A DNA stretch of 64,000 nucleotides from Nitrospirota bacterium (GTDB lineage: Bacteria; Nitrospirota; Thermodesulfovibrionia; Thermodesulfovibrionales; Dissulfurispiraceae): the NCBI GenBank assembly GCA_963790025.1, contig CAWBMP010000002.1, positions 320,001 to 384,000 on the forward strand. Reading direction: 5' to 3'. Shown here piece after piece: positions 54,219-63,482 of the stretch (position 1 is its first letter; each line of letters starts with the position of its first letter). The position numbers were made by a program, and so were the translations under genes. The notes beneath the pieces were generated by a model, which worked only from the letters and a program-made list of their open reading frames with translations, did no database searches and was not told the origin of the DNA.

Positions 54219-54294
54219 CAATAATAACAAGTACTAAAATGTGGTATATTAGAAAACTGGCCTTGCACATATACCCTATTAGGAGTTGGAAGGG

Positions 54295-56055
54295 ATGGAC
54301 CCATCAAAAAGCAGAGTTTTAACTGTTCAGGACTTTTACCTGATAAGAAATATCATTACATATATCCTTAGACAAAATGGGTTTAAAGCTATAGATTCGG
54401 TCGGCAGTTGCCGGGAAGCGCTGAGCAAACTTGAGAGTGGAAACTATATCATGGTTGTGTCTGATTGGAACTCAAACATAGATGGCTTGGAGCTTCTGTA
54501 CACCATAAGGGAAAACCCGGAACTGAAAAACATTATATTCATAATGGTGACCACTGAAATCGACAAAAACAAGATAATGCAGGCAATGGAGCAGGGAGTT
54601 GATGGATATGTAGTGAAACCCTTTACAGCAGAGGCATTATGCCTTAGAATAGTCTCCGCTATAAAATCAAAGTATAAGGACCTGTACAAAAGCGTTCAAC
54701 AATCTGTAAGACAAAGTCGGGCGACATCCACAACCGATGATACCGGACCTTCAACGAAAGTATCGGAGACCACTCCAAAAGCGCCATTTTTTTCTGTCAG
54801 TAATTGGTCCACTGCGCCGTCTTATTTGCGTTCGAACCCCAAAATTTTTGTGGCGGGCAATACGGGCGCAATGATGGATATAATATCACCGCAGTTTGAC
54901 ATGATGAAGGAAACCAGTGATTTTGTATCGATCAACGACATGCTTTTAAATGCGAAAAATACTGCGAGGACAGCTAAAAAACAAACCGAAAATGCCTCAC
55001 AGATTGCAGCTGCAACCGGGGACATTGCTACAGCGTTAAACTTGTTGGATGCCCCGGCTGGTTCGCCGAAATCAATACAGGGATTAAAGGCAGTCAACAA
55101 GACTGCTGCTAAACTATCCGATATGATTGATACATTCAATAAAGATGCTGAAGATGTCATGAAAATGCTTAGTGGTATGGAGGGGATGGTAAGACAGGCC
55201 CATATTCACGAGATCAATGAAAGCATCAAAGATTCGTACGAACTGGAGATGCATCCGGAAACTGGCGCATTAAAGGATTCAAAAATCGGGCCCAACTCAA
55301 CAAAGGTTGCAGAAAAATTGGCGATGATCAGAAATGAATCAGAAAATGCCCGCGGTGCCCTCACGACCGCCGCAGAAAATGTTGCTCAGGTAATAGCAAA
55401 ACTGACTTCAACCGATCCTTCAACCAGTTCATCGCGCGAGTTATTTCATCAGTTAAGTTCAAGAATCGAAAATATTATTGATACGCTTGACAGCCAGATA
55501 GATAAATCCGGAACGCTTGCGCAAGGAATGGAAGAGGTTGCAACAGTGAAAAGTGAAGTGTCGGTTGTGAGTCCTGATAAAAAGGAAGCTGATACAGAAG
55601 TAAACAAGATAATAAATGAAGAACCTGGTCCTCGTGCCGGGGGAGAAACTAAAAGCAAGAGTGTTCCGGTGGCACTAAAGAAAATAATAGAGTATAGAAT
55701 ATTAATGATTGACCTTATCAAAAAAGATTTTCATATAAGCATAAAAAACCTTGAGGAAATGCTAAATGACAAGGCTGAATTCAGGCAGGAGCACCTGCCT
55801 GGACATCCTGCAAGCAGTATTTCCAAATGGCTTGATAAAAGAATAGAACAAAAGGATTATTATGATATAGATGTGTGTCATCAGATAGCAGACGCAGGGA
55901 ATGAACTGTATGAACAATCTGCAAAGGCCCTTGAAATGCAGGCAAAAGGAAATAGAAGAGAGGCCTTAAGTATGATGAAGAATATAAATGGTAAGGTAAA
56001 TATGATTGATACCCTTTTAAAGAAGCTTAAAGATGAATTGAAGAAAAAAATTTAG
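54295..56055 (+). CDS. Receiver domain, MCP-like helical region and degenerate CZB-like domain protein
   Basis: CheY-like VSDW, MVT, VVKPF; heptad-rich middle; C-terminal GH..S.ISKW...Y...G.R.EA pattern. Confidence 0.7.
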   Translation: MDPSKSRVLTVQDFYLIRNIITYILRQNGFKAIDSVGSCREALSKLESGNYIMVVSDWNSNIDGLELLYTIRENPELKNIIFIMVTTEIDKNKIMQAMEQGVDGYVVKPFTAEALCLRIVSAIKSKYKDLYKSVQQSVRQSRATSTTDDTGPSTKVSETTPKAPFFSVSNWSTAPSYLRSNPKIFVAGNTGAMMDIISPQFDMMKETSDFVSINDMLLNAKNTARTAKKQTENASQIAAATGDIATALNLLDAPAGSPKSIQGLKAVNKTAAKLSDMIDTFNKDAEDVMKMLSGMEGMVRQAHIHEINESIKDSYELEMHPETGALKDSKIGPNSTKVAEKLAMIRNESENARGALTTAAENVAQVIAKLTSTDPSTSSSRELFHQLSSRIENIIDTLDSQIDKSGTLAQGMEEVATVKSEVSVVSPDKKEADTEVNKIINEEPGPRAGGETKSKSVPVALKKIIEYRILMIDLIKKDFHISIKNLEEMLNDKAEFRQEHLPGHPASSISKWLDKRIEQKDYYDIDVCHQIADAGNELYEQSAKALEMQAKGNRREALSMMKNINGKVNMIDTLLKKLKDELKKKI

Positions 56056-56059
56056 CCCC

Positions 56060-56725
56060 TTACACCGGAGTCACAATGCCGTTGCTCATTTTCAGCTGGC
56101 GCCCGGTTTGCTTCGCGAGTTCGTTATTGTGAGTTACTATAATAAAAACCGTTCCTTTTTCCTGGTTAATCTTTTTGAAAAAATGAATCATTTCGGCCTC
56201 GGTCTCTTCGTCTAAATCTCCGGTGGGTTCATCGGCCAATACAATCCCTGGGCTGGTTACAAAGGCCCTTGCAATAGCAACTCTCCTCTGCTGGCCCCCA
56301 GAAAGCTGGGATGGATAGGACTTTATTTTATCACTCAGGCCGACAACATCACAGAGATACTTCGCGTAGCTGCCTGCGTCCTCGCCATGCATGCCGAAGG
56401 TCAGCGGGAGTACGATATTTTCGAAAACAGAAAGCGTGGGGATAAGACTCGCAAACTGGTAGATAAAACTGATCGTTTTACTCCTGAAATCCGAAAGAGC
56501 GTCGTCGCTCATAGACCAGATATCGTTTCCATTTATGATGACCGATCCTGAATCCGGTTTTGTAAGCCCCCCGATCAGACTCAGAAGTGTCGTTTTCCCG
56601 CTCCCGGAATGTCCAATTATAGATACCAACTCACCGGGACTCACCGTAAAGACCGCCTTATCTACAGCCGCGACTTTTTTCCCTGCAATCGTATACTTCT
56701 TGGTAACGTCCTTAATTTCTATCAT
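56060..56725 (-). CDS. ABC transporter ATPase, LolD/MacB-like
   Basis: GHSGSGKT, LSGGQQRRVAIARA, LADEPTG, VTH. Confidence 0.93.
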   Translation of the reverse strand: MIEIKDVTKKYTIAGKKVAAVDKAVFTVSPGELVSIIGHSGSGKTTLLSLIGGLTKPDSGSVIINGNDIWSMSDDALSDFRSKTISFIYQFASLIPTLSVFENIVLPLTFGMHGEDAGSYAKYLCDVVGLSDKIKSYPSQLSGGQQRRVAIARAFVTSPGIVLADEPTGDLDEETEAEMIHFFKKINQEKGTVFIIVTHNNELAKQTGRQLKMSNGIVTPV

Positions 56726-57372
56726 TATTCCTTTCCAGTCTTTTCTATCTCTTTCATCAGCACTTCGGCTGCGCCGGTGTCGATGTCTTTTAAAGCCTCA
56801 TATTCCCGCATCGCAGCTTTCCTGTCTTTTACTTTCAGATACGTTATTCCAAGATTGAGTCGCGCCGTCACATAGCGAGGACGCAACTGCACGGCTTTCT
56901 TCAACACAGATATTTCTTCGCGGTCCCTGCCCAGTTTTCCGTATGCTATTCCAAGGTTATTGTATGCCACCGGATAGGCCGGCATATAATGTACCGCTTT
57001 TTTTAAGGCCGTCACTGCTTCGCCCGGCTGCCCTATCCGGTCATATGCCGTTCCCATTTTTAAATATACATACCCCTGTGCAGGTCTCAGCTTAGACACT
57101 TTTTTATAGGCATCGATCGCTTCGGGATATTGACCGTCACGTTCATATAAATCTGCCAGACGGAACCAGGCATCAGCGTCTTCGGGATGCTCTGCAGCAT
57201 TTTTCTTTGCATCGGAAAGAATCGTATCAACCGCATAAGGATTGAAAGCCGGTCCCTGATTTTTTTCAGCCGGTGTCTCTTCTTTTTTACAGGAATAAGA
57301 TAGTGCCGTTCCGAATAAAAACAGAAATAAAAGAGCAATGGCCGCTGCCCTGTTCAGTATACATTTTTTCAT
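56725..57372 (-). CDS. TPR-repeat lipoprotein
   Basis: Signal with SYSC-KKEE; tandem TPRs (AWFRLA, VYLKMG, AYNNLG, ARLNLG). Confidence 0.85.
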   Translation of the reverse strand: MKKCILNRAAAIALLFLFLFGTALSYSCKKEETPAEKNQGPAFNPYAVDTILSDAKKNAAEHPEDADAWFRLADLYERDGQYPEAIDAYKKVSKLRPAQGYVYLKMGTAYDRIGQPGEAVTALKKAVHYMPAYPVAYNNLGIAYGKLGRDREEISVLKKAVQLRPRYVTARLNLGITYLKVKDRKAAMREYEALKDIDTGAAEVLMKEIEKTGKE

Positions 57373-57836
57373 CTCGTACCTCCGGACTCGGGGTAAAGCT
57401 CCAAAAGCCTCGCTTTCATCAGTCCAAAGGCGGCAGCGAAATCCACGGGATTGCCCCACTTCCCGGCTTCGGCGTCAGTCCTGAAGGCCGCTATGCTCCA
57501 TGACATCGGGGTATCAAATTTCTTGCTTCGGACATACCGGGCCTTCCTGCCGTCGATCCATGCGCCGCCCGCATAATCTTTCACATATACAGCCCGGATC
57601 GCGTTCTTCGATGTCCTGAAATGATAAAGCATATCCCCCAAATCGCAAAAAAACAATTTCCTGCCTTTTTCATCAATGACCTCGTTAGCAAATTTCGAGT
57701 TGCGGTCAACAGCCATCCCGCATTCATCGCAGTGTTTTCCCTCAGGTATCGCCACAGGTTGCGCATATACCACAGAAAAAAAACAGGCAAAAACTAAGAC
57801 ACAACCTATACCTGTACCTTTTATTCGTGATTTCAT
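57369..57836 (-). CDS. NosL-family metal chaperone-like exported protein
   Basis: CDECGM, FFCDLGDM, YVKDY...WID...A.YV, TPM. Confidence 0.85.
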   Translation of the reverse strand: MKSRIKGTGIGCVLVFACFFSVVYAQPVAIPEGKHCDECGMAVDRNSKFANEVIDEKGRKLFFCDLGDMLYHFRTSKNAIRAVYVKDYAGGAWIDGRKARYVRSKKFDTPMSWSIAAFRTDAEAGKWGNPVDFAAAFGLMKARLLELYPESGGTR

Positions 57837-57837
57837 T

Positions 57838-59046
57838 TCACTCTCCTCTACGTATGGCCTCATACGGCTCCATTCTGCTTGCTATCATCGCGGGCATCAG
57901 GGACGATAGGAGTCCAGTAATCACAGAAAAAAGCAGAGCGCCGGCCACCAATTCCGCAAGCACGACCGGGGGTGGCAAAAGATACGGTAATTTAAGACTG
58001 TTCAAGATAAAAGATTTGAATGTCAGCAGGATTGCCGAGCCTCCGATCAACCCGCATATGCCGCCTGCTATAGAAATGATAATCGCTTCCGCAATAATAA
58101 GCCCGAAAATATGCCTTTTCTTCGCCCCCATGGCCCTCAAGAGACCAATTTCACGCTGTCTCTCATTCACTATCATATAAAAAGCAAATCCCATCATAAG
58201 AAGCGCCAGCACCCACACAACGGCGCTTATAATAATTATGCCATTAAGAAGTCCGCTCAACTGTTTCCTCACTGTGTTCAATACTTCATCAGAGGCAATA
58301 GCCTTAACCCCATCAATGTCGTGGTCTATTCTGATAGCGACCCTGTCCGGAGCATCGTCACTTTGGACCTTGACCAGCACTGCCGATATTTTGTCTCTGC
58401 CTATGTCGATCGGCTGCATGGATCTGGTCTTCGAATTTGCAGCCATTGCATAGGCAGCATCCAGTGACATGAAAACCGTACGGTCAAAAAATTTCATTCC
58501 TGTAGGTTCCAGGGTGCCTGCTACAGTGAAAGGCGTCCCGTAAAATGGGATCGTATCTCCCACGATCACAGGCACGCTCCTGCCGGTTATAACCTCGCTG
58601 ACGCTCAAAGGCTTCTTCATATTTTTTTCAAGCCATGGGGCTATAGTAAAGTCCGTGAGAGGATCGAAAGCCACGAGAAAGACATCAACATTATAACAGC
58701 AGGTAAAGGAGGTCGGTTTAATAAAAAGCTGCGGGGTCGCCTCCTTAACACCATCAATATGCCTGACTTTGTCAAGCACGGACTTGTCCATATAAAAACT
58801 GGCCGGTTCGCCTGCAAGCAATGCCGAACGGGCCTCGGAGACATTTTTCTCAGGGACAACGAGGATGTCCGCGCCGAGCCGATACGTCCCGATCTTCAGT
58901 GCGTTCTGCATACTCGATATGAAGAGCGTCGCAGCAAATATGGTTCCGGTAACCACAGTCACCGCCAGGAGAAGCAGCAAGGTCCTGATAATTTTTCTGC
59001 TCAGATTTTTGACCGCAATCGAAAATATAGTTAATCGTGTCTTCAT
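57838..59046 (-). CDS. ABC transporter permease, MacB/FtsX/LolC-like
   Basis: NL.R...RT, RLGADILVVP, ER.REIGLLRAMGA, PA..ASRMEP..AIR. Confidence 0.92.
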   Translation of the reverse strand: MKTRLTIFSIAVKNLSRKIIRTLLLLLAVTVVTGTIFAATLFISSMQNALKIGTYRLGADILVVPEKNVSEARSALLAGEPASFYMDKSVLDKVRHIDGVKEATPQLFIKPTSFTCCYNVDVFLVAFDPLTDFTIAPWLEKNMKKPLSVSEVITGRSVPVIVGDTIPFYGTPFTVAGTLEPTGMKFFDRTVFMSLDAAYAMAANSKTRSMQPIDIGRDKISAVLVKVQSDDAPDRVAIRIDHDIDGVKAIASDEVLNTVRKQLSGLLNGIIIISAVVWVLALLMMGFAFYMIVNERQREIGLLRAMGAKKRHIFGLIIAEAIIISIAGGICGLIGGSAILLTFKSFILNSLKLPYLLPPPVVLAELVAGALLFSVITGLLSSLMPAMIASRMEPYEAIRRGE

Positions 59047-59086
59047 AAAAAACCTTTACCGCCTCGCCCAATCTTAATTTATACAG

Positions 59087-59120
59087 AAAAAAGAGGGGCA
59101 TAAGTCATTATGCCCCTCTT
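59087..59120 (-). terminator. Intra-operon intrinsic terminator after the beta-propeller gene
   Basis: AAGAGGGGCATAA-tgac-TTATGCCCCTCTT followed by T-tract on the minus strand. Confidence 0.85.
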
Positions 59121-59142
59121 CCGTAATAATTGTCCAATAAGA

Positions 59143-60270
59143 CTATTTACCAGGATTCCAGTCAATCTCCAGACCGCAAAGGAGCGGAGACCCCTTGTCG
59201 ACCTTGACCTCTATTCCATTGGCTTTGTGGCAGGAGGCGCATGCCGAAACCCTGCGCACAATATTGGCATTCCTTAAATCCATGACGTCGAGTGTGCTGT
59301 CATCGGCATATGTCCTGGAGGTAAGGAACGCATATTTCCCGTCCTTCGTAAATGCAAAGTCGTGCGGTCTGATATTATCAGGCAGGATAATCCTCTTTAT
59401 TATCTTATCGGTCTTTGTATCGATAACAATGATCTGGCTCTTATGCGTCCCCGGCTTCAGGCCTGGATCATACTCATTGGGAGCGCTGACCCACAGATAT
59501 TTACCGTCGGGCGTCATGCGCGTCTGGTGAATAAATGTCATCTCAGGGCTTTTTATCTCTTTTATCGGCTTTTTCGTCTTCCAATTATATACATAGACGA
59601 TACCTGTCGGCATATCGGTTATGTACGCCTTTTTATTATTTTTGGTCCACTGGATGCCGCATACCGCTTTACCCACCGGCATTTTATCCGCTGTTTTTAA
59701 CTTTTTGGCATCCCATACATATACATTGCCGTCAGCCATGTCTTCCAGATAGACCTTGCCGTCAGGACCTACAATAGCCCCGCAGAACTTTTCTCCAACG
59801 TGGAAGGGCCCTTCTTTTTTTCCTGATGCCATGTCAATTTTATAGACATCGCCGCTCAATGTGCCGGCAATCATTACTTTCTTCCCCTTCTCGGTGATAA
59901 GCGCCTGACCGTGCGTGCCGCCGGCCTTCTTGACCTCCTCAAAGCTCATTCCGGCAATCTTTCCTTCCATCTCCGAGCCGGCCTCGACAAGTACAATTCT
60001 GTCTTTTTCGACATCCATCGGAGGCTTCATGGTCCGCATATCGATAATAGCTACATGTCCGCCATGACCTGCGATATAGCCAACAGCATTGAAAGTGACA
60101 TTTTTTTCCGGCGTGATCACTTTGGCATCTATGGTATCACCGGGTGCGGTATAACATGATTCGCCACTCATATCGACGGCAGCAATGCCGTTCTTAGGAG
60201 CACTGCCAAACACTATAAGCCCTGCTATAACCATAGAACCTGCTACTAAAACCGCCAGTTTTTGCCTCAT
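59143..60270 (-). CDS. Exported YncE/YVTN-type beta-propeller protein with C-terminal CxxCH motif
   Basis: Sec-type signal; (T/G)PDGK/TKDGK/TKNNK blade repeats; SACASCHK. Confidence 0.8.
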   Translation of the reverse strand: MRQKLAVLVAGSMVIAGLIVFGSAPKNGIAAVDMSGESCYTAPGDTIDAKVITPEKNVTFNAVGYIAGHGGHVAIIDMRTMKPPMDVEKDRIVLVEAGSEMEGKIAGMSFEEVKKAGGTHGQALITEKGKKVMIAGTLSGDVYKIDMASGKKEGPFHVGEKFCGAIVGPDGKVYLEDMADGNVYVWDAKKLKTADKMPVGKAVCGIQWTKNNKKAYITDMPTGIVYVYNWKTKKPIKEIKSPEMTFIHQTRMTPDGKYLWVSAPNEYDPGLKPGTHKSQIIVIDTKTDKIIKRIILPDNIRPHDFAFTKDGKYAFLTSRTYADDSTLDVMDLRNANIVRRVSACASCHKANGIEVKVDKGSPLLCGLEIDWNPGK

Positions 60271-60283
60271 GCTTCCCCCATTC

Positions 60284-60379
60284 TTATGTATTGTTTTCGT
60301 TTTTCTGCTGTACTGCACACGCCGAAGCCGCCGTGCTGCCCCCATAAGAACAGAGAACAGCCCTGAACACTTTACTCAT
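60284..60379 (-). CDS. Candidate 31-aa leader peptide
   Basis: AAGGAGGTGAG-ATG; MSKVFRAVLCSYGGSTAASACAVQQKNENNT*. Confidence 0.35.
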   Translation of the reverse strand: MSKVFRAVLCSYGGSTAASACAVQQKNENNT

Positions 60380-60406
60380 CTCACCTCCTTCCACTCTCCT
60401 GTAACT

Positions 60407-60435
60407 ATCTTAAAATATTAACTCTTTTGTGTCAA
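60407..60435 (-). promoter_or_regulatory. sigma70 promoter of the propeller/ABC/NosL operon
   Basis: TTGACA-N17-TAAGAT on the minus strand. Confidence 0.7.
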
Positions 60436-61792: not shown

Positions 61793-61811
61793 GATGTACA
61801 TCCTATGTTCT
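61784..61811. repeat. Perfect 28-bp loopless palindrome between convergent genes
   Basis: agaacataggatgt|acatcctatgttct. Confidence 0.9.
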
Positions 61812-63022
61812 ACAGTCCCTTCTTTCTCCGGATCAAGTCATGCCTTCTGACTCCCTGCGGAACATTGATTCTGATAACACCTTCATTCCTTGCTGACATA
61901 ATAGCAACACCTTCGCCATCAAACATTGACTCAACAGAGAAATGTTGACCCTCAAGTCCCGGAGTAAGGTATTCTATATCGTCTCCTTTATCAAGCCTGT
62001 TCCTGAGGGCTATTTTTGCAGATCCTCCGTTCACTTCCACTACCACACCCACCAGTTCATGGCTCATACGGTAACTTTCACCATCAAAATTATAATCGGC
62101 ATCCGGCTGTTTTCCAAAAAACATGCCGGTCGTATATCCCCTGCTGCTGAACATGGAAAGTTCGTCCACCCAGCTTTTCCTGACACTATAATCCCCGCTT
62201 CCCCCGATTGAATCGATTGCTTCCCTGTAAACTTTCACCACACCGGCAACATAATTTATGCCTTTCATCCTGCCTTCTATTTTGAAACTGTCCACTCCAG
62301 CTCCCATGAGAAGATCAAGGTGCGGCAGCATGCAGAGGTCCTTTGAACTCATGAGATAGGTGCCCCGGCTGTCCTCTAAAACCGGGAAATATTCTCCGGG
62401 GCGCTTCTCCTCCAGCAAGGCATAGTTCCACCTGCAGGAATTAGTGCATTCGCCCCTGTTGGCTCCGCGGGATGCAAGGAAACTGCTGATATAACACCGA
62501 CCCGAATAGGATATGCAAATTGAGCCGTGGACAAAAACTTCAAGCTCGACTGAAACCTTTTCCCTGATTTCGCCTATTTCTTCCACAGTCAGTTCCCTGG
62601 AAAGCACAAGACGCTTTGCGCCGCAGTCCTCCCAGAACCGTGCAGCGGCACAATTTGTGATATTTGCCTGGGTGCTGATATGAAGAGGAATGGCCGGCGC
62701 GGTTTTTTTGAATAAAGCACAGATACCCGGGTCGGAAACAATAACAGCATCGGGGCGGAAATCCATAAGCTGTTCAATATGCTCCTCTATGGCAGGCAGA
62801 ATCTTTGTTGTGGGGGAAAATATTGACCGTTACATACACGCGAACACCTTTCTTCCGCGCATATGCAACGGCAGCGCGCACCTCCTCGCTGCCAAAATTC
62901 CCGGCTTTGCTTCTCAGGCTAAACCCGGAATCACCCAGGTATACCGCATCAGCCCCATAGTGAATTGCCGTCTTCATCTTCTCGAAATCTCCGGCAGGGG
63001 CGAGCAATTCAGGCTTTTTCAC
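61810..63022 (-). pseudogene. U32-family protein (TrhP/YegQ-like) with +1 frameshift near 62800
   Basis: [15 protein letters not shown], then HISTQAN, CISYSGRC, CTNSCRW, KIEGR; removing one base gives HNKDLPAIEEHIEQLMDF. Confidence 0.85.
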
Positions 63023-63482
63023 GGTATATTCGCTCCCTGCATATTTCAATGGCGTTCCGTGCGAGTTGGTCACACCGTTCATTCTCATAATGCCCGTTGT
63101 GTCCCTTGATCCACGTCCATTCAATTTCATGGGTCGCTGATGCATTAATAAGTCTCTCCCAGAGATCTCTGTTGAGAACGTCCTTCTTTTGAGAGTTTTT
63201 CCAGCTATTCTTTATCCATCCCCTGATCCATTCAGTCATGCCCTTTACTACATAATTCGAGTCGCTTATCACCCTGACCCTGCACGGTTTCTTAAGCACT
63301 TCAAGGGCGGTAATAACACCGAGCAGTTCCATTCTATTATTCGTTGTCATCGCCTCGCAGCCGGACAGCTCTTTTTCTTTTGCTCCTGCCCGCAAGATAG
63401 CACCGTATCCGCCGACGCCGGGATTTCCGCTGCAGGCGCCGTCAGCATAAATTTCGACAAAAGGCAATTTATCACTTTTCAT
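63009..63482 (-). CDS. rnhA: Ribonuclease HI
   Basis: [33 protein letters not shown]. Confidence 0.97.

Follow-up and report, generated by a model that had tools for sequence, protein, structure and literature searches.

A conserved operon of Nitrospirota encodes a six-bladed propeller that is a candidate haem c and copper protein, with a MacB-type ABC transporter as its putative assembly machine

The window analysed here is a stretch of 64,000 nucleotides from a Nitrospirota bacterium (contig CAWBMP010000002.1, positions 320,001 to 384,000), whose minus strand carries at 56060..60435 a five-gene operon of 4.4 kb encoding a β-propeller, an ABC permease, a NosL-type chaperone, a TPR lipoprotein and an ABC ATPase. 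With moderate confidence, we interpret the locus as encoding an undescribed periplasmic redox propeller with haem c and copper, together with a dedicated assembly machine of MacB type that would act in a Nos-like manner. An earlier note on this DNA, made from its letters and reading frames, had proposed a distinct protein with haem c and a mixed His/Cys metal site, served by its own maturation genes, and this proposal is supported, at the level of sequence, by the profile, model and comparative analyses reported below. The layout given in that note, a promoter followed by an exported propeller of 375 amino acids (aa), a hairpin and four tightly coupled genes, was borne out by the open reading frames (ORFs) and Pfam, the promoter itself being a consensus match only.

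The propeller gene (59143..60270, minus strand) was assigned to an uncharacterised family of exported six-bladed β-propellers from its ORF, profile matches, alignment and an AlphaFold2 (AF2) model. Its ATG at 60270 has GGGGGAAG just 5', and a longer 400-aa ORF from 60345 lacks such a site; because homologues begin at MRQKL or MKK, in the same place as the 375-aa ORF, the 400-aa ORF is not the gene. The fold class was read from the predicted structure: in the model (mean predicted local distance difference test score, pLDDT, 77.4; predicted template modelling score, pTM, 0.79), DSSP assigned six four-stranded blades, the last closed by a C-terminal strand at residues 367-370, and the first strands of the blades start at residues 119, 162, 203, 250, 302 and 367. 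The best neighbours returned by an all-against-representatives structural search were YWTD, NHL and lactonase propellers (Z 20-25), all of them six-bladed folds, and NosZ (2iwf) scored Z 19.5.

His or Cys had been proposed at equivalent positions near the blade starts, in the motifs THG (H120), FCG (C163), VCG (C204), IHQ (H248), PHD (H303) and LCG (C365), along with the motifs AGHGGH (H69, H72) and CASCH (C344, C347, H348), and all of these motifs are present. In the model each of the six blade-start residues lies at most two residues from an inner-strand start, where propeller enzymes place their hub ligands, and strand topology, rather than distances, suggests that they converge on the channel. 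Conservation was examined in 147 relatives (119 of a main class, 7 at 42-60% identity and 21 below 42%), the lowest at 33% identity, and it extends down to that level: C204 and H248 are kept in all 147, C163 and H303 in 146 and C365 in 145, as are C344, C347 and H348 in 146-147. The proposal failed in part for H120, which is retained in the two nearer classes only and lost in the far clade, and the two AGHGGH histidines fared slightly differently, with H72 kept in 146 relatives and H69 in 142. Retained along with H120 is an invariant Met/Glu-rich loop at residues 97-117, with M101 kept in 119/119 and M108 in 116/119 members of the main class. The pairs D177-M178 and D219-M220, together with E266, D304, R319 and W371, are nearly universal among the 147 relatives, and H276 is unconserved. 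In a divergent alignment (A2), 31 columns are invariant or close to it, and 9 of them are Cys or His, versus 14 of 375 residues overall, a strong enrichment among conserved positions (9/14 versus 22/361 for other residues; Fisher p = 8e-8).

The CASCH motif (59227..59241, minus strand), a putative site of haem c attachment, lies in a short helix after blade 5. The chain ends 27 residues further on, with no CuA-type motif in that tail, and no CxxCH is found at the N-terminus. About residues 1-31 (60178..60270, minus strand) form a likely Sec-type signal peptide, read by eye from the sequence (MRQK, a hydrophobic stretch, then IAA|VD), and the model places a helix at residues 2-20 followed by a disordered stretch. 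The genome has two cytochrome c assembly genes (Cytochrom_C_asm), so that a conserved CxxCH, a Sec-type signal and maturation genes, as in c-type cytochromes, are found together, and we infer a covalent haem c at this motif. One relative, P0127, has an additional insert bearing CAGCH. That the CxxCH survives in lipoprotein paralogues with no hub argues for a haem site distinct from the hub itself.

No paper describing the propeller family was found in a literature search, and the family is undescribed and belongs to no named family; the absence of a full-length match to a characterised family, on which the proposal of the earlier note depended, was upheld by searches of Pfam, NCBIfam and the PDB. 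The Pfam matches are generic propeller models and a partial match to cytochrome d1 (PF02239; 30.4 bits versus a cut-off of 25.5; residues 216-367 of the 400-aa ORF on profile positions 212-355 of 368), which many of the generic models outscore. Apart from this marginal hit no curated Pfam or NCBIfam family was matched above its cut-off, and profiles of clade I/II NosZ were not among the Pfam or NCBIfam matches at E ≤ 0.1. The YncE profile NF052280 reached 28.3 bits, under its equivalog cut-off of 400, and the database name "YncE family protein" is a fold label only. Profile searches of the PDB returned YVTN-type propellers only (best 1l0q, E 8e-12), sequence searches of the PDB and Foldseek gave generic YVTN/WD40 propellers, hydrazine synthase beta and NirN, none of them informative on function, and a protein atlas search returned nothing beyond clusters of the family itself and generic ones of lactonase or YncE type. 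A word-index search detected 559 relatives (database clusters), the best 120 all at least 70% identical, with 70-88% identity over the whole length among families; the named ones, labelled "YncE family" or "cytochrome D1 domain-containing", come from Nitrospirota, Thermodesulfovibrionales, Dissulfurispiraceae and one metagenome-assembled genome (MAG) of Acidobacteriota. A library clustered at 50% held 20 representatives at E 1e-30, then a few full-length relatives at 28-47% identity, and beyond those generic YVTN repeat proteins. A search of proteins 658-2000 residues long gave no longer, fused relatives with E ≤ 1e-20, which is weak evidence of absence, and P0125 in the representative library is a protein of 2470 aa with one propeller domain of the family. 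A second propeller match in the genome (C4, 483 aa) was rejected as a generic YVTN protein without CxxCH.

The nearest functional analogue of the operon is NosZ with its NosDFY-NosL machinery. Common to both are a periplasmic propeller with hub residues from the inner blade strands, an ABC complex encoded beside the structural gene and a NosL-type Cu(I) chaperone, the ligand pattern of which is the same as far as the consulted part of the NosL literature describes it. Clade II NosZ is exported by Sec, as proposed for the propeller, and Wolinella-type cNosZ carries a C-terminal haem c domain. The propeller differs from NosZ in having six blades, not seven, a mixed Cys/His/Met hub (three Cys and three His) in place of seven His, and a single CxxCH instead of a cupredoxin CuA domain; its ABC transporter is of MacB/FtsX type with a Cys-Cys periplasmic domain rather than NosFY with the NosD β-helix, and the TPR lipoprotein is additional. 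Sequence, model and Pfam concur with the earlier statement that CuA/cupredoxin and N-terminal cytochrome c domains are lacking and that the ABC is not of NosFY type. NirS (cytochrome cd1) likewise joins a haem c motif to a propeller and shares the weak PF02239 match, but the propeller has no N-terminal cytochrome c domain, six blades rather than eight in the model, and no haem d1 genes nearby. Thiocyanate dehydrogenase (TcDH) is also a periplasmic copper propeller enzyme, from sulfur bacteria, and has thioredoxin-like and copper-transport genes as neighbours, according to the part of the source consulted (PMC6504805). It differs from the propeller in being Tat-exported, seven-bladed and without a haem motif. 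The PDB entry 8q9x, which we take to be TcDH, matched the family profile only at E 0.3.

The best named NCBIfam match of the propeller was to lactonase-type NosZ (clade III, L-NosZ; NF052460; reportedly the subject of He et al., Nature 2025;646:152), at 55.4 bits versus a cut-off of 700 and over profile positions 88-231 only. L-NosZ, too, occurs in Nitrospirota, and its clusters are reported to lack nosDFYL and, like the operon, to have a MacB-type ABC, whose role is given as unknown (PMC13685413). BLASTP of the propeller against a true L-NosZ (L094) gave E 4e-5, aligning FIHQ with GIHH and PHD with PHGH. This L-NosZ of 581 aa has His-only hub motifs, adjoins cytochrome c and b genes and ends in a CuA motif, which L098 shares and the propeller lacks. 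A search of the propeller's own genome with NF052460 found nothing above cut-off, and in the sampled Nitrospirota families with L-NosZ (f10, f14, f15 and f16) the propeller family occurs in 0/21 genomes. The propeller is thus a protein that works like the NosZ and L-NosZ families, as we understand it, but is no member of them.

Downstream of the propeller gene and also on the minus strand lie the genes of a MacB/FtsX-type ABC permease (57838..59046; 402 aa, periplasmic domain about residues 44-268), the NosL-type Cu(I) chaperone (57369..57863, probable start 57836), the TPR lipoprotein (56725..57372; 215 aa) and a LolD/MacB-like ABC ATPase (56060..56725; 221 aa), which abut or overlap by 1-4 nucleotides, one overlap being ATGA. 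The family assignments of these helpers are direct observations. The permease matches FtsX (PF02687, 70 bits) and MacB_PCD (PF12704, 39 bits) and the ATPase ABC_tran (115 bits), all above cut-off, and the TPR protein was recognized by Pfam TPR models. An FtsX C-terminal domain, a MacB periplasmic core domain and a separate ATPase are the composition of a MacB/FtsX-type (type VII) ABC transporter. In its periplasmic domain the permease has a vicinal Cys116-Cys117 pair (58696..58701) that is invariant in 98/98 permeases, far clades included, and is to our knowledge no feature of MacB, LolCDE or FtsEX systems; M86 is likewise kept in all 98, M184 in 93, M193 in 94 and M201 in 90. In the TPR protein Cys28, conserved in 90% or more of 78 sequences, is consistent with a lipoprotein.

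The NosL-like gene identified in the earlier note is a NosL: it matches PF05573 with 52.4 bits (cut-off 24), and 90% or more of the 31 operon NosLs retain C36-x2-C39-x-M41, C64-x3-D68 and M111. These correspond, with the same spacing pattern, to all six metal (Zn/Cu) ligands of S. denitrificans NosL (Cys59, Cys62, Met64, Cys88, Asp92 and Met145), as listed in the section of the source consulted (PMC8457098). The N-terminus of operon NosLs has Cys residues and no conserved lipobox.

With its FtsX domain, MacB periplasmic core domain and LolD-like ATPase the operon ABC resembles MacB, LolCDE and FtsEX, but it stays below every equivalog cut-off. Its ATPase has LolD (TIGR02211) as best NCBIfam profile, at 227.5 bits and under the cut-off of 307.75, and BamB and BamD are, respectively, a propeller and a TPR lipoprotein, so that the operon could be imagined as a non-catalytic envelope factor, a BamB/BamD-like or Lol-like set of propeller, TPR lipoprotein and LolCDE-like ABC acting on lipoproteins or outer-membrane proteins. 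We consider this highly improbable: the permease scores 44.5 bits with LolCE against a cut-off of 362, the distribution of the family is patchy (75/401 genomes, and 5/34 in the window's own family), and the reading assigns no role to the invariant CxxCH, to the hub of Cys and His or to the copper chaperones. A housekeeping Lol system was rejected on the same profiles, neither the LolCE nor the LolD cut-off being reached and a true LolCE lying elsewhere in the genome (G000:C5:468761; 405.8 bits versus 45.5 for the operon permease).

A second NosL-linked module with an FtsX-type ABC was noticed in the same genome (locus L102, G000:C3:70000-89999). It comprises a TlpA-like thioredoxin, a NosL (114 bits), an FtsX permease of 375 aa without the Cys-Cys pair, an ABC ATPase and a polytopic membrane protein of 333 aa with SCC and HHCPF motifs, similar to a 335-aa protein at the same position in L103. 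Near this module the opposite strand encodes a YtkA-like protein, a protein resembling di-haem cytochrome c peroxidase/MauG and one of 487 aa that has a NosL domain at its N-terminus.

Gene order and its conservation were followed directly in relatives, with one genome per species and the best 80 of 121 stretches encoding a propeller relative. Of these loci, 64 extend 3.8 kb or more beyond the propeller gene; by tblastn, the permease, TPR and ATPase genes lie directly downstream of the propeller and on the same strand in 58 of the 64, and NosL is present in 19. Clustering of ORFs in the 80 loci gave the permease in 66, the ATPase in 61, the TPR protein in 58 and NosL in 25; in 15 there is also a membrane protein of DUF4418 type, always beside NosL. 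A metagenome scan with divergent members (best 80 of 208 relatives) showed that the propeller-permease-ATPase core is retained in clades at 33-48% identity. At 45-48% the gene order is YeeE/YedE, propeller, NosL, DUF4418, permease and ATPase, with the YeeE/YedE sulfur-transport gene (PF04143, E 6e-71 on L121; look-alike ORFs in L137 and L165) directly upstream of the propeller. The 33-38% clade has two types: one with a second FtsX permease, a hub-less propeller lipoprotein with CxxCH and a TlpA/ResA-like thioredoxin that matches SCO1/SenC weakly (L103, L111, L112 and L113), and the other with a PCu(A)C chaperone after the ATPase (L107, PF04314, E 2e-19; a BLAST-similar ORF in L108). Two unrelated families of copper chaperones, NosL and PCu(A)C, and a thiol reductase therefore recur with the propeller-permease-ATPase core. 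The proposed co-occurrence with helper genes thus stands for the permease, TPR protein and ATPase, and for permease and ATPase in distant clades, but NosL is optional; in other clades PCu(A)C or a TlpA/ResA-like protein takes its place, which widens the copper reading without overturning it.

In the 33-38% clade, the second propeller lipoproteins, without FCG/VCG cysteines and with the C-terminal CxxCH (L103:10914-11951, L113:4947-5891 and L111:5352-6374), follow second FtsX permeases of 566-568 aa. In one MAG (L040:11032-14493) the first operon is followed immediately by a second, divergent propeller (YVAGHGGH, LCG, C-terminal CLGCH), which has a permease, an ATPase and a 100-aa membrane protein of its own. 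Small membrane-anchored ORFs of 91-100 aa that share an [LIV]-D-[IV]-C motif and have no family match accompany far-clade operons (L107:7098-7373, L108:6511-6786 and L040:14191-14493). One subclade (10-15 loci) has a multihaem cytochrome c and a cytochrome b561 gene convergently downstream.

In the mechanism that we propose for a haem- and copper-carrying propeller, the protein would be exported unfolded by Sec and one haem c attached covalently at the C-terminal CxxCH. Copper would be bound at the hub by the single Cys or His at the inner-strand start of each blade (H120, C163, C204, H248, H303 and C365), helped by H69 and H72 and by the Asp-Met pairs D177-M178 and D219-M220. The Cu(I) would come from NosL, or from PCu(A)C in other lineages, in some of which a TlpA/ResA-like thiol reductase would keep the cysteines reduced. 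The MacB-type ABC would pass the copper on through its periplasmic domain with the Cys-Cys pair and conserved Met, driven by ATP hydrolysis in the cytoplasm in the way that NosDFY serves NosZ, and the TPR lipoprotein would be a scaffold. In the NosZ system, as reviewed in PMC13685413, NosL delivers Cu(I) to NosD, which is anchored to the ABC, and ATP binding moves the copper on to NosZ. The holo-protein would conduct electrons through the haem and turn over a small inorganic substrate at a copper-thiolate hub; judging by the hosts, this substrate may be a sulfur compound or a nitrogen oxide.

Several observations weigh against this mechanism. NosL is missing from 45/64 loci, the TPR gene is absent from the distant clades, among them that at 33-38%, and 6/64 loci are stand-alone propeller copies with none of the four helpers; five of these six are in MAGs with another propeller locus (L016/L017, L043/L052, L041/L054, L049/L083 and L088/L089), and of the five partner loci four have ABC genes and L041 is too short to tell. 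The model is of moderate confidence, with pLDDT at 48-68 in the CxxCH region and below 50 in the loop at 97-117. The similarity to L-NosZ is weak (55 bits versus 700; BLASTP E 4e-5 with blade-shifted alternatives), and in five Nitrospirota L-NosZ contigs neither a homologue of the operon permease (tblastn) nor an FtsX-domain gene was found, though the 8.5-20 kb read are too short for evidence of absence. Proteins of TlpA/ResA type also serve cytochrome c maturation and are therefore not specific for copper. Finally, the MacB-type ABCs known to us extrude or extract their substrates, and we know of none that loads metal.

This last point would suit an account in which the locus serves copper detoxification or trafficking, the abundant propeller being a periplasmic Cu(I) sponge or adaptor and copper passing from NosL or PCu(A)C to a MacB-type pump for expulsion from the periplasm. 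MacB and LolCDE are generally known as extruders, soft Cys/Met/His ligands occur on both propeller and permease, and a strong promoter followed by a terminator is a layout suited to an abundant binding protein. In 13/80 loci, divergent genes upstream of that for the propeller encode an ArsR/SmtB-type metalloregulator (or TetR), a TolC-like outer-membrane efflux protein, an HlyD-type membrane-fusion protein and a resistance-nodulation-division (RND) permease (for example L015:2-6147, minus strand). Within the conserved operon, however, there is no membrane-fusion or outer-membrane partner, and the invariant CxxCH, the cytochrome-like insert of P0127 and the 70-88% full-length identity across families suit an enzyme better. 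The hosts, moreover, are mostly sulfide-producing anaerobes with scarce free copper, as judged from DsrA in 72/75 carriers, and we regard detoxification as unlikely.

The family is present in 75/401 sampled Nitrospirota genomes (54/329 of the high-quality ones), with further relatives in MAGs labelled Desulfobulbia, "delta proteobacterium" and Acidobacteriota. All carriers but G322, G227 and G248 have DsrA (E ≤ 1e-60), and no carrier was found in sampled families without DsrA; this link is largely one deep clade split, and thus shows only that the host lineages are of sulfite- or sulfate-reducer type. These hosts, and the YeeE/YedE gene directly upstream in the 45-48% clade, are among the reasons to weigh a haem-only enzyme of thiol or sulfur chemistry, in which the hub Cys would carry persulfide or polysulfide or ligate haem, the Cys-Cys pair of the ABC would relay sulfur and the copper chaperones would be incidental or serve other clients. 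Ligation of haem by His/Cys occurs in TsdA, SoxAX and DsrJ, and the TlpA/ResA-like partners and vicinal Cys suit thiol chemistry. Such an enzyme appears improbable to us, given that NosL, PCu(A)C and the TlpA/ResA-like protein with its weak SCO1/SenC match recur in the operon across clades, that Met and His, which typically ligate Cu(I), are conserved next to the Cys, and that the DsrA link is weak for the reason given.

Under the haem and copper reading, the propeller is a good candidate for a new periplasmic metalloenzyme, probably assembled by the ABC motor, the TPR lipoprotein and the copper chaperone. Few multinuclear copper propeller enzymes are known to us, namely NosZ, L-NosZ and TcDH, and each opened part of the nitrogen or sulfur cycle; the present family is widespread (559 database clusters), strongly constrained and unnamed. 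If haem and copper are bound, the propeller would have a new cofactor arrangement and possibly supply a reaction so far missing from what is known of peat, groundwater and anoxic sediments, and with its helpers a MacB-type ABC would for the first time be shown to load metal into a protein of the periplasm. The finding would then also bear on how clade III NosZ is matured without NosDFYL, as its clusters are described in the consulted part of PMC13685413. A bolder version, which we hold to be unlikely, would make the family a fourth architectural type of NosZ-like copper propeller enzymes, with haem c for CuA, a copper (or copper-sulfide) cluster with Cys/His/Met ligands at the hub of six blades for the all-His CuZ and a MacB-type ABC with Cys-Cys relay for NosDFY. 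Its reaction in Nitrospirota and Desulfobacterota that reduce sulfate would be a reduction or oxidation to which no enzyme is yet assigned, such as the reduction of N2O or NO, or a step in the turnover of inorganic sulfur that depends on copper.

Between the propeller and permease genes lies a strong terminator-like hairpin (59122-59089, that is 59089..59122 on the minus strand) with a stem of 15 base pairs, 6 of them G-C, a loop of 4 and a T run. A strict scan found a perfect-stem hairpin of this kind in 52/100 spacers between propeller and next gene, and a tolerant scan, which accepted a single hairpin of -10 kcal/mol or stronger followed by a T-rich tail, in 88/99 related spacers versus 72/495 shuffled ones. 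The hairpin sequences vary between loci, so that the feature is conserved and not its sequence. The internal terminator noted earlier therefore recurs, and it fits the idea, also part of our proposed mechanism, that the structural protein may be produced in larger amounts than its helpers. Ahead of the propeller gene, a σ70-like promoter (TTGACA-17-TAAGAT; 60435-60407, that is 60407..60435 on the minus strand) matches the consensus at 10 of 12 positions; the site alone is weak evidence because the scan found 9 sites in total against 8.1 expected from shuffles, no excess.

Among divergent members of the propeller family, P0122, P0124, P0132 and P0144 have a low-complexity linker and then, at the C-terminal end, a short ...G-C or G-C-G/M tail, and P0124 and P0127 have lipoprotein-like N-termini. 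Two members from other Nitrospirota genomes have in-frame stops, G013:C1:610981-611949 (one TAG) and G209:C12:1165242-1166229 (two TGA, the match also being split), and may be pseudogenes or assembly errors. Elsewhere in the window, a gene convergent with that of the ATPase (54286-56055, plus strand) encodes a protein of 589 aa in which a response-regulator receiver domain at the N-terminus is followed by a long, low-complexity and coiled-looking remainder without family assignment. At 61810-63145 (minus strand) a U32 peptidase is apparently split over two reading frames: its 318-aa ORF starts at position 14 of the Pfam domain, a 123-aa ORF just upstream (62774-63145) has no family match, and the split may reflect a frameshift or a sequencing error.

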